Positions 36,515-56,871 of a stretch of DNA of 64,000 nucleotides are shown here, one piece after another (positions within the stretch are counted from its first letter, which is position 1; every line of letters starts with the position of its first letter). Below the pieces are notes generated by a model that was not told the DNA's origin, did no database searches, and saw only the letters and a program-made list of their open reading frames with translations. The position numbers and the translations under genes are program-made. Source of the stretch: a virus; the IMG/VR virus record IMGVR_UViG_3300026196_000005, one strand, 5' to 3'.

Positions 36515-36720
36515 TTTTCAATTTCCTTTGGCTCTCGGCCTATTGGCTTGCTCAATTGCTTGCCACTTGAAGAAGTATAGCATAGTTGTATATCAGTGTC
36601 AAGCGTTTGGGGTACTAATTCCCAAAACTCAACCTTAAAACTTTCTACCTCTGGTAAAATGTCATCTTTCTTGCCATAAGCGCGGAATCCAGTTGTAATA
36701 AGTTCCCTGGCTTTTATCAA
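36475..36720 (-). CDS. hypothetical protein
   Basis: 81-aa ORF overlapping both neighbours; start uncertain. Confidence 0.3.
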   Translation of the reverse strand: MIKARELITTGFRAYGKKDDILPEVESFKVEFWELVPQTLDTDIQLCYTSSSGKQLSKPIGREPKEIEKCLLTNAMVFRDM

Positions 36721-37912
36721 ATTTTTCTTGAAATTCTGCCAAAGTTGGCATCGAATCGAATCCAGTGAACCAACTTGTAATCATGGCCGTTTTTTCATCG
36801 TCCGATCCTTGCCACAATACCGGGTTTTGGTTTGCCGTTTTCATCTGCTTTTTGGGCCATTCTGGTTCAGTTCTATTTTCAGACCATTGCCGCGCCGTTT
36901 CCTCTAATTCCCGCTTTGCCACATAAAGTGATTGGATGATATTTATCTCACCTGCAATATCGGCAATGAAGCGGCCTCTGATTTTGCCATTGGCGTGGAA
37001 TGGTTCCCAGTATTCCTTAGCAATTTCCATTATTTTATAATAGTGGCTAGGATTCTTTAGGTAAGCGCAAAAAATACTGCTCATCTGCGATTTTAGCGCA
37101 GTTGGAACCGCTGCCACGTTGCCAAGCTGGGTAGCTGGAATTAATGAGATACCAAAAGCGCGGCCTTCTTTTGCCAATTTGACCATACCGTTTAATGCCT
37201 GTTCGGATTCGTTTGTGATGTTTTGGAATTCGTCAACAATCATCACAATGCGCGGCAAGCGGGGCAAACCAAGCGCATTACCAAGCCGATGATAGTCATC
37301 TAAATTATTGCAAATGCGATCTTGCGGAATTGCCTTAAATAGTTGAGCGCGTTCTGTCATCTCCAATAATAGATGATTAATTTGCTCATTGGCCTGGCTG
37401 GCAGATGTGGCAACGGGTAAAAGTAAATGGGGAAGCCGCTTATAAATACGAAAATCCAATCCCTCTTTCAAATCGGCAATGACAAGGCGCAAATCTTGCG
37501 GTGTACTATTAAGAAGCAACTGGTGAATGATACTATGCACGAATGAAGTTTTGCCGCTGCCAGTGATACCGACAACCATAAAGCTGCCAAGCTCCTGTAA
37601 ATCAGTCATCAGATATTGGCGGGACTCTATATCCTGGCCGGGACAAATAACATAAGGCTCTGTTTTAGTTGCTTCTTGTTCGGGCAATCGCCAATCTCTG
37701 AGCGCATAATACAGGGTTTTAAGCCATGAAAAAATAGGCAATAAAATCAGGTTATATCGTTCCTCGTGAGCAATCCAAATAGCAACAGCGCAAACAGCCG
37801 CAAAAATAATGCCAGTTCCAATGGATTCTGATTGCCAAAATCCAATTAGACCCGCTATTAATGCGTAAATATAAATTGCTTGGTTTGGTTGCCCTGTATC
37901 GGTTTGATTCAT
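36662..37912 (-). CDS. FtsK/SpoIIIE/TraB-like DNA-translocase ATPase with N-terminal TM segments
   Basis: Walker A VVGITGSGKTSF, Walker B IVMIVDEFQNI, two N-terminal TM helices. Confidence 0.75.
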   Translation of the reverse strand: MNQTDTGQPNQAIYIYALIAGLIGFWQSESIGTGIIFAAVCAVAIWIAHEERYNLILLPIFSWLKTLYYALRDWRLPEQEATKTEPYVICPGQDIESRQYLMTDLQELGSFMVVGITGSGKTSFVHSIIHQLLLNSTPQDLRLVIADLKEGLDFRIYKRLPHLLLPVATSASQANEQINHLLLEMTERAQLFKAIPQDRICNNLDDYHRLGNALGLPRLPRIVMIVDEFQNITNESEQALNGMVKLAKEGRAFGISLIPATQLGNVAAVPTALKSQMSSIFCAYLKNPSHYYKIMEIAKEYWEPFHANGKIRGRFIADIAGEINIIQSLYVAKRELEETARQWSENRTEPEWPKKQMKTANQNPVLWQGSDDEKTAMITSWFTGFDSMPTLAEFQEKFDKSQGTYYNWIPRLWQER

Positions 37913-52612: not shown

Positions 52613-52640
52613 AGCCCTTCTTTACCGAAGGGCTTTTTTG
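52613..52640 (+). terminator. intrinsic terminator
   Basis: AGCCCTTC TTTACC GAAGGGCT followed by TTTTTT. Confidence 0.8.
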
Positions 52641-52731
52641 TGTTTTACTGTGTTGTTTGTTATAATAATAGAAATTGCTAGTCGCGACGCGGTAACGTCC
52701 ACTAGCCCTCCGATTGAAAAGGAATCGAAGC

Positions 52732-53910
52732 ATGATAAATCATATCACGATTTTAAAAGCCTACAAGACAAAACTTAGACCAACCGCAAAGCAGCGGCGT
52801 TATTTTGGCGGCTGTTGTGGAGCTGCTCGGTATGTTTTTAATTGGGCGTTGGCCGATAGGATCGCCACTTATGAAGCTGGCGGTAAACCAAACAAGTTTG
52901 AGCAAAAGAGGCGTTTTAATGCTACCAAAGATGAGATTTGTCCATGGATTCGTGAATACCCATATTGCATAATGCAAGAAGAGTTTGACCATGTGGACAT
53001 TGCTTATCAAAACTTTTTCCGTCGCATTAAACAGGGTAAAGGCGGCAAAGAAACAGGATTTCCGAAATTCAAAAGCAGATACAAAGACAAGCAATCATTT
53101 GTTTTACGTGGTTCTATTCGTGTTGAAAATGGGCGTGTTAAGTTACCCCGTATTGGTTGGGTAAATTTAGCTGAATCTAATTATATTCCAGAGGATGTAA
53201 AAATAAACTTTGTGACACTTTCGGAAAGTGCCGGGGAATGGTTTATTAGCTTTCAAGTCGAACAAGAAACAGACGAACCCGTACCGGCAATGGGTGAACC
53301 GCTAGGCGTTGACGTTGGCATTAAATCATTGGCGGTTTGCTCAGATGGGAAAGAGTTTCCTAATGACAAGGTGCTGAAAACATACGAGAAAAAGTTAGCC
53401 CGTTTACAGCGCGAATTATCACGACGTGAAAAAGGCAGTTCTAACCGGACCAAAACAAAAGCTAAGATTGCCAAGCTTCACCAAAAGATAGCTAACAAAC
53501 GGGCGCATAACCTGCACAATGTAAGCAAGTATGTAACCGAACATAAACGGCCTTCGGTGGTAGTCATTGAAGATTTGAACGTTAAGGGCATGGTTAAAAA
53601 TCACAATCTGGCTAAAGCCGTTAGTGATGCTTCAATGTCTGAATTGCACCGACAAATTGAATATAAAGCAGCATGGAATGGGATTGAGGTTTTGAAAGCG
53701 GATAGATGGTTTGCATCTTCCAAAACATGCAGCTCCTGTGGCTGTATCAATTCTGAATTGACATTAGCCATGCGGATTTATAAATGCCCTGATTGCGGGG
53801 CAGAAATGGATAGAGACCTTAATGCTGCTATGAATTTAGCGGCTTTAGCTGAACCTGTGAAGCGCGGGGAATTGCCTGTGGAGTTGGGCGGTAGTGAACG
53901 CTCACTGTGA
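52732..53910 (+). CDS. TnpB-like / miniature type V (Cas12-like) RuvC nuclease
   Basis: 392 aa from ATG 52732 (the track starts at TTG 52714). N-terminal KAYKTKLRPTAKQRRYFGGCCGAARYVFNWAL is typical of the OrfB/TnpB family. RuvC-I LGVDVGIKSLAV, RuvC-II VVVIEDLNVKGM, zinc finger CSSCGC...CPDCG, RuvC-III DRDLNAAMNL. No TnpA nearby. Confidence 0.85.
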   Translation: MINHITILKAYKTKLRPTAKQRRYFGGCCGAARYVFNWALADRIATYEAGGKPNKFEQKRRFNATKDEICPWIREYPYCIMQEEFDHVDIAYQNFFRRIKQGKGGKETGFPKFKSRYKDKQSFVLRGSIRVENGRVKLPRIGWVNLAESNYIPEDVKINFVTLSESAGEWFISFQVEQETDEPVPAMGEPLGVDVGIKSLAVCSDGKEFPNDKVLKTYEKKLARLQRELSRREKGSSNRTKTKAKIAKLHQKIANKRAHNLHNVSKYVTEHKRPSVVVIEDLNVKGMVKNHNLAKAVSDASMSELHRQIEYKAAWNGIEVLKADRWFASSKTCSSCGCINSELTLAMRIYKCPDCGAEMDRDLNAAMNLAALAEPVKRGELPVELGGSERSL

Positions 53911-54011
53911 ATCAGGAAGGTGGCATACTTCGGTATTAAGACCACCAGCACATATGGGGTAACTCATATGTACACCCACTTAACAACTGTATATAGGGGT
54001 AATACTCAAGG
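53911..54011 (+). other. structured gene-array spacer region (candidate leader / tracr- or omega-RNA-like scaffold)
   Basis: Hairpin GGTGG..ATAC-TTCG-GTAT..CCACC (53919-53946, UUCG tetraloop). Hairpin ACATATG/CATATGT (53950-53971). AAGACCACC (53938-53946) is complementary to the repeat 3' end GGTGGTTT with one G-U pair. Confidence 0.35.
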
Positions 54012-54225
54012 GTTTATCCTACAGGCGCGTGGGTGGTTTGAAAAGTTGTCACATTTTCCATTTCTCACTCCTCGTTTATCCTACAGGCGCGTGGGTGGTT
54101 TGGAATCATCATGAGCTATTGTAGCACGAAATCACGTTTATCCTACAGGCGCGTGGGTGGTTTGCTACTTCACAAGCGGCTAACTTTCAACGCCAAGTTT
54201 ATCCTACAGGCGCGTGGGTAGTTTG
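54012..54225 (+). CRISPR. mini CRISPR array: 4 x 29-bp repeat GTTTATCCTACAGGCGCGTGGGTGGTTTG, 3 spacers (33, 33, 32 bp)
   Basis: Repeats at 54012-54040, 54074-54102, 54136-54164 and 54197-54225 (last repeat has G>A at 54220). Spacers are unique. The repeat can form CCUAC-AGGCGC-GUGGG. Starts 101 nt after the TnpB-like stop. Confidence 0.85.
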
Positions 54226-54320
54226 TACGATCCAAAACTCTAATTAATATTTACAGGCTCTGTCTTTACGATGGAGCTTTTTTTGTGTTATCATATATTA
54301 ATTATATTGGATTAAATTAA

Positions 54321-54351: not shown

Positions 54352-56871
54352 TTGCGCTTACTGGTAAAGTTTATGACCAAAAATGGTACGCAAGAAAAAG
54401 CACTCATAGATGATCGGATATTGGATCGTACGGTTCAAAAGATACCAGACCAACAAACAATACCGGGTAGTGATGTTTTTGTTATCAATGTTTCGTCATT
54501 TGCTGATGACTTGCCAGCCTGGGGACGCAATGTCAGATTACGTGATAGGAAGCTGCGGGGGTTTTGGCCTACTGAACCGATTATAGCAAGTGCCATTCAA
54601 ACGATTGTGGCAGCGCGTGCCAATATGTCATGGTCGCTTGACGGGCCTCCTCGCACGGTTGGCATTTTGCAGCGTATGCTACAGTCATCCAACTTGGGCA
54701 AAGGCTGGCTTGACCTAAGAATTAAAGTACTTACTGACCAACTAACACAAGACAATGGCGCATTTGTAGAAGTCATTCGGCAAGAAGACGCGCCAAATAG
54801 CCCGGTATTGAATCTAGCGCATTTGGACGCAGGTAGATGCGTAAGAACTGGCATCCCCGAAACCCCTGTCATTTACTGGGATCGTGATGGCATAGAGCAT
54901 AAATTAGCATGGTATCAGGTATTGACTTTTGAGGATATGCCGTCGCCAATTGAGGAAATGAATAGTTTGCAGGTTTGCTTCTTAAGTCGCGTCTTAAGAG
55001 CAGCCCAAATTATAAAAGACTTTGGAATCTATAAACGGGAAAAAATAGCAGGGCGTAATCCTGGCGAGATACATTTTGTTTCAGGTGTTCAGACTAAACT
55101 AATCAACGACAAATTAGCCGATGACCAAATGAGTGCCGACAATCAAGGCTATAGCCGTTTCATGTTGCCAACGATTATTGGTAGTCTTGACCCTAATTCG
55201 ACTGTTAGCACGGCTTCAATCGACTTGCGTAGTGTTCCTGATGGATTCGACGAGGATACTACATTGCGCTGGTACATTGCCCAAATTGCAATGGCCGCTG
55301 GTGCTGATTATCAGGATTTTGCGCCATTATCATCTGGCAGCTTGGGCAGCGGTCAACAAAGTGACGTGCTAGACCGTAAGTCACGCGGCAAAGGGCGCGA
55401 AACTGATGTCAAGCTATGGGAACATAAACTAAATTTTAATGGCATCATGCCGCAATCGGTGACATTTGCTTTTGATGAAAAAGACATTGAGTCAGATATT
55501 CAAGCTGCTGAATTAGAAGATAAACAGGCAAAAACATTTTCAACTTATTATGATAAGGGTCAAGGCATTTTGTCGTTGCCAGTTATCCATCAAATGATGG
55601 CAGACCAAGGCATCTTAAAGCCTGAGTACATGGCACTTTTGAATACTACAGATGTGACACCCGATATTGTGGCAACGGATGATGAGCAAGCCGCAACTGA
55701 ATCAGAACTAAATGAGGCAAACAATACGCCGTCAACCGATACGGCAGAAATGCAACCGGAACAGATACCAGCGGAAATTAGAGCGAAGGAAAATGAAGAA
55801 TATGGATGCTTAATGTTAATGATGCCTGATCATATTAGACATGCCGCTTCGTTAATTGCTGCTAATTTAGATAGTGATGATTTGTTTCAGCCACCAGAAT
55901 CATGGTCAAGTTCACCAATTGTGACAGATTCCCATGTAACAGTTAAGTATGGATTTTTGGATAGTGTGACACCAAAGCAAATTACTTCACAGATTCAAAA
56001 ACTATTGCCACTTACTATAAAAATTGGCAATTTGGCATTATTCCAGAATGATGATTTTGATGTATTGAAGTTGAATGTTGACGGGGCAGAATTACGGCAA
56101 ATGAATGCAATTGTTAGTCAGTTGCCAAACGAGGATACACATCCAACCTACAATCCACATATGACTATTGCATATCTTAAACCCGGTATGGGTAAGAAAT
56201 ACCTAAAACTTGACAATCCTCTTAATGGTATGCGCGTATCTGGCGAGTTGGTTTATTCTGACAAGGGGGAGAGCCACACCACCATACAGGGTTCCATAAA
56301 AAAAAAGACAACCAAACAAATTGATACAGCGGATTATGAATCAGAATTAGCTGACTTAATGGCGGAAGCTGCCAATGGTACAATTACAGAAGATGAGTTC
56401 AGAATTGAAGCTGAATCATTGGTTGCTGCTGAAATTATTAATACGTATCTTTTGGCAAGCGGCAAAACCATAGCGCAATTGACAGATGAGGATCGGCAAA
56501 TCATATCAGACCAAACAGAAGTGAACCTTGACGCTATACCGGGTTTATATTTATCGGCTGTTGCTTTTGGTGGTGATGAGGATACGCCTACTGATGAACT
56601 GATTGATAATCGTGTAACGCTTTGGGGAGTTGGTTTACTGGCTGTTTACGCGCTTGGGTTTTTACGTGGTGGAGATGATGAAGATCATATTGGTTGGGCT
56701 TTAGGGCCAACCGATCATTGTAACTCTTGCCTAGATAATAGCCAGCGTGTTCTCACCCGTAGTCAATGGCGAGCTTTAGGAACATATCCAAAAAGTCACG
56801 AATTAGATTGCGGCGGCTGGCTGTGCCAATGTAGTTGGGTAGAAACTGATGAACCGCTCACAGGTGTTTAA
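54352..56871 (+). CDS. portal protein fused to a 2H-phosphoesterase (LigT/Acb1-like) domain and an SPP1 gp7/Mu F-like minor head domain
   Basis: 839 aa in the position after the terminase (start may be ATG 54373). Two HxTx motifs, HVTV (aa 528; nt 55933) and HMTI (aa 603; nt 56158). The C-terminal HCNSC...ELDCGGWLCQCSW resembles the gp7-family end motif. Confidence 0.65.
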   Translation: MRLLVKFMTKNGTQEKALIDDRILDRTVQKIPDQQTIPGSDVFVINVSSFADDLPAWGRNVRLRDRKLRGFWPTEPIIASAIQTIVAARANMSWSLDGPPRTVGILQRMLQSSNLGKGWLDLRIKVLTDQLTQDNGAFVEVIRQEDAPNSPVLNLAHLDAGRCVRTGIPETPVIYWDRDGIEHKLAWYQVLTFEDMPSPIEEMNSLQVCFLSRVLRAAQIIKDFGIYKREKIAGRNPGEIHFVSGVQTKLINDKLADDQMSADNQGYSRFMLPTIIGSLDPNSTVSTASIDLRSVPDGFDEDTTLRWYIAQIAMAAGADYQDFAPLSSGSLGSGQQSDVLDRKSRGKGRETDVKLWEHKLNFNGIMPQSVTFAFDEKDIESDIQAAELEDKQAKTFSTYYDKGQGILSLPVIHQMMADQGILKPEYMALLNTTDVTPDIVATDDEQAATESELNEANNTPSTDTAEMQPEQIPAEIRAKENEEYGCLMLMMPDHIRHAASLIAANLDSDDLFQPPESWSSSPIVTDSHVTVKYGFLDSVTPKQITSQIQKLLPLTIKIGNLALFQNDDFDVLKLNVDGAELRQMNAIVSQLPNEDTHPTYNPHMTIAYLKPGMGKKYLKLDNPLNGMRVSGELVYSDKGESHTTIQGSIKKKTTKQIDTADYESELADLMAEAANGTITEDEFRIEAESLVAAEIINTYLLASGKTIAQLTDEDRQIISDQTEVNLDAIPGLYLSAVAFGGDEDTPTDELIDNRVTLWGVGLLAVYALGFLRGGDDEDHIGWALGPTDHCNSCLDNSQRVLTRSQWRALGTYPKSHELDCGGWLCQCSWVETDEPLTGV

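Follow-up and report, generated by a model that had tools for sequence, protein, structure and literature searches.

A phage tnpB gene followed by a CRISPR mini-array: a probable minimal TnpB-based type V-like system

The window analysed here is a stretch of 64,000 nucleotides (nt) of viral DNA, one strand of IMG/VR record IMGVR_UViG_3300026196_000005. Towards its right end lies a tnpB gene encoding a 392-residue (aa) RuvC nuclease, followed on the same strand by a short CRISPR array (short palindromic repeats, clustered and regularly interspaced). An earlier sequence-only reading had seen in this pair a viral TnpB-type nuclease coupled to a CRISPR array, and the comparative evidence presented below supports that core proposal: the two elements probably work together. 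The features of the locus, all on the + strand, are as follows.

52613-52640, +: intrinsic terminator that ends the upstream gene (52613-52634) and bounds the module on the left; 8-bp stem, then a T-run
52658-52666, +: extended -10 promoter-like element TGtTATAAT, read from sequence
52677-52706, +: hairpin GCTAGT...ACTAGC in the 5' untranslated region (5'-UTR); stem covaries among relatives
52732-53910, +: tnpB gene, 392 aa; intact RuvC D-E-D and zinc finger
53851-53980, +: scaffold of omega-RNA type, sharing 60 nt with the 3' end of tnpB; 132.5 bits to covariance model R1
53919-53946, +: scaffold hairpin 1, GGTGG..CCACC, inner AUAC-UUCG-GUAU with UUCG loop
53950-53971, +: scaffold hairpin 2, ACATATG..CATATGT
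53972-53979, +: anti-repeat ACACCCAC, directly after hairpin 2; predicted partner of repeat positions -5 to -12
53980-54011, +: linker/leader ending in AGG; length variable among lineages, AGG|GTT junction conserved
54012-54040, +: repeat 1, GTTTATCCTACAGGCGCGTGGGTGGTTTG; anti-repeat-pairing part 54029-54036
54041-54073, +: spacer 1, 33 nt
54074-54102, +: repeat 2
54103-54135, +: spacer 2, 33 nt
54136-54164, +: repeat 3
54165-54196, +: spacer 3, 32 nt
54197-54225, +: degenerate repeat 4; position -6 changed G>A, one anti-repeat pair lost
54255-54287, +: intrinsic terminator closing the unit; 10-bp stem (within 54255-54279), then a T-run

The 392-aa protein matched the Pfam families HTH_OrfB_IS605, OrfB_IS605 and Cas12f1-like_TNB and the NCBIfam model NF040570 (guided_TnpB), the latter with 316 bits where the cut-off is 100; the score of 338 bits for NF038281 (IS200_TnpB) lay under its strict cut-off of 425. 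The best natural structure match was ISDra2 TnpB (8H1J, 8EXA; 220 bits over residues 9-370), on whose catalytic motifs GVDVG, IEDL and DRDLNAA align, and the zinc finger reads CSSC...CPDC. Profiles and alignment agree with the original description of an OrfB/TnpB-family protein with an intact RuvC triad and a CxxC...CxxC finger. Cas12f structures scored about 54 bits, and LaTranC (PDB 9JFO) matched with 108 bits over no more than 130 residues at the C-terminus. Scores with the curated NCBIfam models of Cas12f2 (88.7 bits, cut-off 450) and C2c8 (81.9 bits, cut-off 350) fell far short. We put the 287-289 bits obtained with the PADLOC Cas12u4 and Cas12f models down to the overlap with TnpB that these models are known to have. 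Cas12f proteins span 400-700 aa. Taken from these comparisons, the protein appears to be an unexpanded ISDra2-type TnpB nuclease without REC/WED expansions. A TTG at 52714, upstream of the assigned start, would yield 398 aa; the identical database protein has 392.

The marks of a mobile insertion sequence (IS), a TnpA partner or several copies with defined ends, were not found for this tnpB. One scaffold match and zero repeat copies elsewhere in the window make the module single-copy there, and no Y1 (TnpA) or serine transposase family was among the Pfam families listed for the window. Among the families listed for the other 91 open reading frames (ORFs) there was likewise no Cas1, Cas2 or Cas4, as the sequence-only reading had stated, and adaptation genes were absent from the 25 strongest PADLOC families listed for all 92 ORFs.

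The array begins 101 nt after the tnpB stop. A search for its 29-nt repeat with at most 3 mismatches returned 4 matches in the window against 0.00 expected. With four such repeats and unique spacers of near-uniform length it has the make-up of a CRISPR array, for which three or more near-identical direct repeats 23-50 nt long were required. The geometry first described, four 29-bp repeats with spacers of 33, 33 and 32 bp and a degenerate last repeat, was thereby confirmed. In the + strand the repeat RNA folds into a CCUAC/GUGGG stem that includes a U.G pair, and the repeat of the - strand shows no fold. Some repeat variants may resemble the type I-E repeats of E. coli and T. thermophilus. A genome scan for three copies of TGGTTTG at a 59-64-nt period, a poorly chosen pattern, gave at least 120 matches, and among those listed were only coding or tandem repeats, none of them family-like.

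Relatives were gathered from a protein database, from metagenome and IMG/VR scans and from contig look-ups, and the resulting loci carry L numbers. An identical TnpB was found on two other metagenome contigs, L001 and L002. All 14 lineages with at least 48% identity and readable downstream DNA, the window included, carry a same-strand mini-array 60-170 nt past the stop codon; about 80 TnpB loci of at most 46% identity had none. The other 13 lineages, with their identity to the window TnpB, are:

L003: 87%, 2 repeats
L004: 85%, 3 repeats, decayed
L105: 80%, 6 repeats
L110: 72%, 2 repeats, decayed
L027: 70%, 2 repeats
L111: 68%, 5 repeats
L112 family: 66%, 2-3 repeats
L122: 62%, 2 repeats
L030: 59-61%, 3 repeats
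L123: 56%, 3 repeats
L124: 56%, 2 repeats
L128: 50%, 2 repeats
L126: 48%, 7 repeats

In a neighbour-joining tree the array-bearing lineages formed one clade, with the array-less L005 as its sister, and the genes flanking the module varied from lineage to lineage while looking phage-like throughout. The sequence comparison thus supports an association of gene and array that is conserved, monophyletic and clade-wide. The sequence-only reading had pictured an independent domestication carried by a virus; the event would instead be older and belong to the clade as a whole, not to this phage in particular. Two further observations concern single lineages. In L123 (3048-8202) the TnpB-array module lies within a block of 17 tRNA genes on a contig of more than 109 kb, and at L112:4296-4306, as in L113-L119, the repeat tail TGGATGGTTTG is duplicated straight after the terminal repeat.

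The sequence between gene and array, together with the 3' end of the gene, looks like a split omega-RNA, that is, a scaffold resembling a tracrRNA (trans-activating CRISPR RNA) plus a CRISPR RNA (crRNA). The two gap hairpins noted earlier, one with a UUCG tetraloop, are present, and with helix A, a long-range CCUGU/CAGG helix and helix B they make up the scaffold. Six helices came out of alignments that took in 11-12 lineages and began within the ORF, about 60 nt from its end; alignment A1 extends to repeat 1, A6 to the anti-repeat. RNAalifold found 31 of 39 pairs compensatory, and 28 of 34 scaffold pairs change on both sides across relatives. Scaffold cells were paired in 95.1% of cases, compared with 67.5% in shuffles (0 of 500) and 34-45% in slid registers. 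The covariance model built here, R1, matched the window once, at 53851-53980. The Rfam model RF03015, Transposase-2 RNA, had a match there in L111, at 42.6 bits with a gathering score of 42.7, and a weaker one in L124; Transposase-2 RNA is a motif found 3' of IS605 orfB. In three loci (L111:6078-6170, L112:4078-4170 and L124:5051-5170) early stops remove roughly the last 25 TnpB codons, and the DNA beyond them can still be aligned with the coding sequence of relatives. This conservation despite the early stops points to constraint on RNA, not on protein.

An anti-repeat on the scaffold is the feature that would tie it to the array. We aligned the sequences by hand from two anchor points, one where hairpin 2 stops and one where the repeat has its 3' end (alignment A2). 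Across 11 related sequences, the 8-pair helix between anti-repeat and repeat was paired in 89.8% of cells, against 78.9% in shuffles (0 of 500) and 40-60% in slid registers. Four of the eight pairs are compensatory: s4:-8 changes from C-G to U-A, s3:-7 from A-U to C-G, and s1:-5 also covaries. The C-G form occurs in the window, L003, L004, L105 and L122, as opposed to U-A in L027, L111, L112 and L123. The minimum-energy fold of the window sequence makes the same stem between ACACCCAC and the repeat. The support for this predicted pairing is good but not conclusive. Scaffold covariation and pairing bear out the idea of a tracrRNA- or omega-RNA-like scaffold in the gap, with a different segment in the pairing role. 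The anti-repeat proposed at first, AAGACCACC (53938-53946), was rejected, because this segment forms the 3' arm of hairpin 1 and its changes in L105, L111, L112 and L030 are matched by changes in the 5' arm of that hairpin, with the repeat unaltered.

A group of eight contigs with an identical protein, P0020, allowed arrays to be compared on otherwise near-identical DNA. Upstream, 1300 nt were 100% identical and the downstream sequence was 98.3-100% identical; the gene-proximal position held one of three alternative spacers or none, and the distal spacer was common to all eight. This pattern points to ongoing, polarised spacer gain. Because the change is at the gene-proximal spacer, the leader would lie at the gene side with transcription on the + strand, and the G.U pairs that occur only in the + strand repeat RNA agree with this direction. 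The orientation inferred earlier from the degenerate last repeat was thus borne out. We also considered a type I-E array read from the - strand and rejected it, given the lack of a - strand fold, the degenerate repeat at the right end and the gene-proximal spacer gain. No adaptation genes were found among those called in the flanks fetched around P0020. With none found in these flanks or in the window, adaptation would take place in trans.

On this evidence, we consider it probable that the window TnpB uses the downstream array, the two forming a CRISPR system that is minimal, TnpB-based and type V-like, of the TranC (transposon-CRISPR intermediate) or V-U kind. The omega-RNA scaffold would be retained with its last stem split: the 5' arm, the anti-repeat, would remain on the scaffold, and the 3' arm with the guide-adjacent tail (GUGGGUGG-UUUG) would stand at the 3' end of each repeat. 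Rightward transcription from the gene-proximal side would give one crRNA per repeat-spacer unit, consisting of the 3' part of the repeat and the first ~16-20 nt of the next spacer. Paired with the tracrRNA-like scaffold, such a crRNA would load TnpB for RNA-guided cutting of matching DNA, its likely use being against rival mobile elements or phages. New spacers of 32-33 nt would enter at the gene-proximal repeat, probably added by a host Cas1-Cas2, most likely that of a type I-E system because of the 29-nt repeat and the spacer length. Spacer gain without any Cas1-Cas2 seems to us very unlikely. What the analysis shows is the gene with its array and their conserved linkage, the structure of the scaffold, the covarying anti-repeat and, in a relative, variable spacers; RNA processing, cleavage, protospacer-adjacent motif (PAM), adaptation agent and targets are the parts of the scheme that we infer.

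Several results weigh against this reading. Rfam gave no match on the window scaffold. The anti-repeat sample is small, and shuffles overstate significance among kin; the 8-bp duplex would also be in competition with the repeat's own hairpin, which in the window is itself weak (-5.4 kcal/mol) and no better than in shuffles. In the window lineage the arrays of L001 and L002, the two other contigs read, are identical to that of the window, with no turnover, so that the expected variability of spacers among relatives was seen in P0020 and not in the window's own lineage. At 32-33 nt the spacers exceed the length required of a TnpB guide and would suit a class 1 system just as well. Finally, the spacer search proposed with the sequence-only reading found no matches for the window spacers: no protospacers for 22 spacers were detected in INPHARED phages, PLSDB plasmids or the collected loci, and five spacer cores compared with IMG/VR matched their own array or nothing.

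Two spacer similarities were seen among the relatives. One spacer of L030 has a 20/21 match to L010 and L053. Spacers from two different phages (L003:1788-1820 and L105:3997-4028) have in common the 11-nt core AACGGCTCGCC, for which the chance expectation among 22 spacers is estimated at ~0.03; this hints at a common target region.

The arrays might alternatively be host-dependent class 1 (I-E-like) mini-arrays that load a host Cascade-Cas3, with tnpB a linked passenger. The dimensions are those of type I-E (parameters from 10.64898/2026.04.20.719267): a partly palindromic 29-nt repeat composed of flank (5 nt), stem (5-6 bp), loop (4-6 nt) and tail (7-8 nt), with 32-33-nt spacers, L105 being a perfect example. 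Polarised spacer gain, moreover, needs a Cas1-Cas2, and the phage is without one. The position of the arrays, however, is always directly 3' of a TnpB scaffold and on the same strand, even where the scaffold copy lacks an ORF. L120 carries three scaffold copies, two of them extra and upstream of tnpB (L120:2317-2960). The + strand copy (2629-2750) has no ORF of its own and is followed by its own four-repeat array; behind the - strand copy (2428-2317) stand one repeat and a guide. Repeats that follow scaffold copies even without an ORF are hard to square with an array that works for a class 1 effector of the host. The covariation of the scaffold anti-repeat with the repeat speaks against it as well, as does the conservation of the repeat, which is best at the spacer-adjacent 3' end as in type V systems. 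The tails GGUUUG, GUUUGG and GAUUG differ from I-E handles; no Rfam CRISPR-DR family matched, and the exact 25-nt repeat core occurred neither in IMG/VR nor in a collection of 185,579 species with one genome each. We therefore regard this alternative as unlikely. An 'Arc' ORF called at L120 overlaps both extra scaffolds and may not be a real gene.

Just as unlikely in our estimate is a static array, in which tandem-duplicated 3' modules of the omega-RNA would provide fixed guides for maintenance or homing of the element, with no spacer gain. The repeats are indeed homologous to the terminal hairpin and tail of the scaffold, which fits the preferred reading of repeats split off from the omega-RNA as well. 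In L124, L126 and L128 repeat 1 directly abuts the scaffold, with the hairpin of the repeat standing where the terminal stem would be, and an orphan scaffold (L129:3871-4040, 104 bits to R1) ends in an unsplit terminal hairpin, CUCCA...UGGAG, followed by UUUGG; no TnpB ORF was detectable on the L129 and L130 contigs. Spacers in early branches are short and irregular (21 nt in L124, ~19 nt in L120), and the window array is invariant across the contigs read and has no foreign spacer match. Fixed guides fit poorly, however, with the crown lineages, whose spacers are uniformly 32-33 nt, and with P0020, where three alternative gene-proximal spacers stand on otherwise identical DNA; nor did the window spacers match the phage's own sequence elsewhere. 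Chance adjacency of an ordinary IS200/605 tnpB inserted beside an existing phage mini-array, with no functional link, is the least probable of the alternatives and barely credible: the protein is inseparable from transposon TnpB by profile and TnpB genes are common in phages (matched in 415 INPHARED records, the best phage-encoded TnpB being 42% identical to that of the window), but the comparative data fit it poorly because 14 lineages of one clade keep the same order, strand and spacing in varied contexts, and the module occurs once in the window, without TnpA and with a promoter-like element and terminator of its own.

With a TnpB that uses its array as the preferred reading, the members of the clade can be arranged as a series of steps: an unsplit single-guide omega-RNA (L129 and the - strand copy of L120), duplication of the scaffold (L120), repeats in the form of the terminal hairpin (L124, L126 and L128), and, in the crown lineages with the window among them, the split stem together with I-E-sized repeats and spacers that a class 1 Cas1-Cas2 of the host would extend in trans. 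That this phage TnpB clade preserves every step from transposon nuclease to CRISPR system, leading to a cross-class hybrid with an unexpanded 392-aa effector, is a tentative proposal which we find possible but rather doubtful.

We propose that the module, from ~52,658 to 54,287, is one transcription unit. The box at 52658-52666 may work as its promoter: the pattern TG-N-TAYAAT recurs at the same place 5' of tnpB in L003, L105, L110, L027, L122, L004 and L123. A promoter consensus scan did not call the window box, and its -35 is weak. The stem of the 5'-UTR hairpin covaries, reading GCCGGT/ACCGGC in L003 and GCTGGC/GCCAGC in L105 and L110. We had entertained this hairpin as the left end of an IS and rejected it: it is kept in four lineages only and follows the promoter-like box, and elsewhere its place is taken by a small putative ribbon-helix-helix (RHH) gene. 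Small ORFs that end at or overlap the tnpB start were seen at L004:241-408, L122:3871-4038 and L124:3785-4000, and also in L027 and L111; by eye they look like RHH proteins of the CopG/Arc type and could be regulators. The window lineage has the promoter-like box and 5'-UTR hairpin where other lineages have the small RHH-like ORF.

The surrounding window is a phage genome: it has genes for both terminase subunits, small and large, for a tape-measure-like tail protein and for a primase-helicase, as well as HNH genes; a search for tRNA genes was negative. DNA comparison with INPHARED in near and distant modes found no relative, and the large terminase (TerL) was only 24% identical to actinophage terminases, so assignment to a known phage was dropped. 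The neighbour downstream of the array, an 839-aa ORF at 54352-56871, had been labelled a portal gene. It matched no portal profile in Pfam or PHROGs; the only domain found was 2H-phosphoesterase/RNA-ligase-like, at residues 525-611. An FtsK/HerA-type ATPase at 36665-37912 on the - strand has partial matches to the SspH, mad8 and DndH defence-system models.

A recent foreign origin had also been suggested for the module, on the ground that it lacks the 9-mer ATACMGGGT. The motif itself is real: 70 matches on both strands, against 0.65 expected, are spread window-wide (for example at 796, 2404 and 62564) with a mean spacing of ~900 nt, and it is possibly a modification, recognition or regulatory site. 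The motif-free gap of 2.3 kb at the module, however, is only the fourth largest of 69, and the GC content of the module (42.7%) is ordinary for a window of 40.9%. We rejected the foreign-island reading as both measures are unremarkable. A second motif, the palindrome ACGGCCGT, is enriched in the phage contigs L003, L004, L027, L105 and L110, also inside tnpB; it occurs in 4-8 copies per 2-12 kb in related contigs, against <0.2 expected, and in 2 copies in the window. The over-represented motif thus seems to differ from one phage group to the next.

Should the module function as proposed, its unexpanded TnpB of 392 residues would rank with the smallest nucleases associated with CRISPR and be directly relevant to compact genome editors, and the clade would supply natural stages between an omega-RNA with one guide and an array that acquires spacers. 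It would also be, with Cas12r, a second independent phage type V-like array of I-E dimensions, making cross-class adaptation in trans testable, and would suggest that phages repeatedly convert transposon nucleases into programmable weapons.

A phage TnpB with a CRISPR mini-array is an already described kind of system, with precedents in TranC, type V-U, CauTranC9 and Cas12r, those in TranC, CauTranC9 and Cas12r being experimental and in favour of the present reading, and ~50 independent associations of TnpB with arrays have been inferred (PMC12669027, PMC10691335). The relation to ISDra2-type TnpB of IS200/IS605 elements is close: the window module has the same full-length protein architecture and catalytic residues, and a scaffold that overlaps the 3' end of the gene, contains the same core motif and has the guide on its 3' side. 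The differences lie in the guide and the element. An ISDra2-type TnpB has a single guide set by the insertion site, whereas the window array holds several; and the window module is a single copy with no TnpA, no recognisable transposon ends and a split terminal stem.

Type V-U, Cas12f and Cas12n systems are similar in having small RuvC effectors of TnpB origin and downstream arrays, often without an adaptation module, and in occurring in phages (PMC10691335, PMC6293099). Cyanophage CL131, for instance, carries a V-U2 locus with 36-nt repeats (PMC6293099). The window protein differs in lying far under the Cas12f2 and C2c8 cut-offs and in its lack of REC/WED expansions.

TranC systems were described as intermediates in which a tracr-like scaffold and a crRNA have arisen by splitting of the right-end or omega RNA (Jin et al., Cell 2025, as related in PMC13565253). 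Their effectors derive from TnpB and have a downstream array and no cas1/2, and the arrays are short, with a median of ~5 repeats (Jin 2025 via PMC13565253; 10.64898/2026.03.27.714800). The window module appears to share all of these traits. One TnpB-sized member, CauTranC9, is active and comes from a phage: clade 9 effectors average 414 aa and have no added domains, and its genome is that of a member of the Caudoviricetes (bioRxiv 10.64898/2026.03.27.714800). The repeats, however, are 32-38 bp in clades 3, 9, 11 and 20 (10.64898/2026.03.27.714800) as against 29 nt in the window, and the window protein matches LaTranC over its C-terminal part only, whereas ISDra2 TnpB matches at full length.

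Cas12r of the Thermus Lalka phages is close in the form of its array, with degenerate 29-bp repeats, 31-33-nt spacers and new spacers beside the nuclease gene (bioRxiv 10.64898/2026.04.20.719267). The Cas12r phage is without adaptation genes, for which its authors propose the type I-E adaptation module of the host, and the crRNA consists of the 3' part of the repeat and the first 18 nt of the spacer (10.64898/2026.04.20.719267). A phage-borne TnpB-like nuclease, a short array of 29-nt repeats, gene-proximal gain (here in P0020) and the lack of adaptation genes are thus common to both. Compared by description, Cas12r has 564 aa, lies 15 bp from repeat 1 and needs no tracrRNA; the window protein has 392 aa and, to judge from sequence alone, a 130-nt covarying scaffold with an anti-repeat before the array. 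The window clade would accordingly appear to combine an unexpanded ISDra2-like effector and a retained scaffold, as in TranC, with arrays of I-E size, as in Cas12r.

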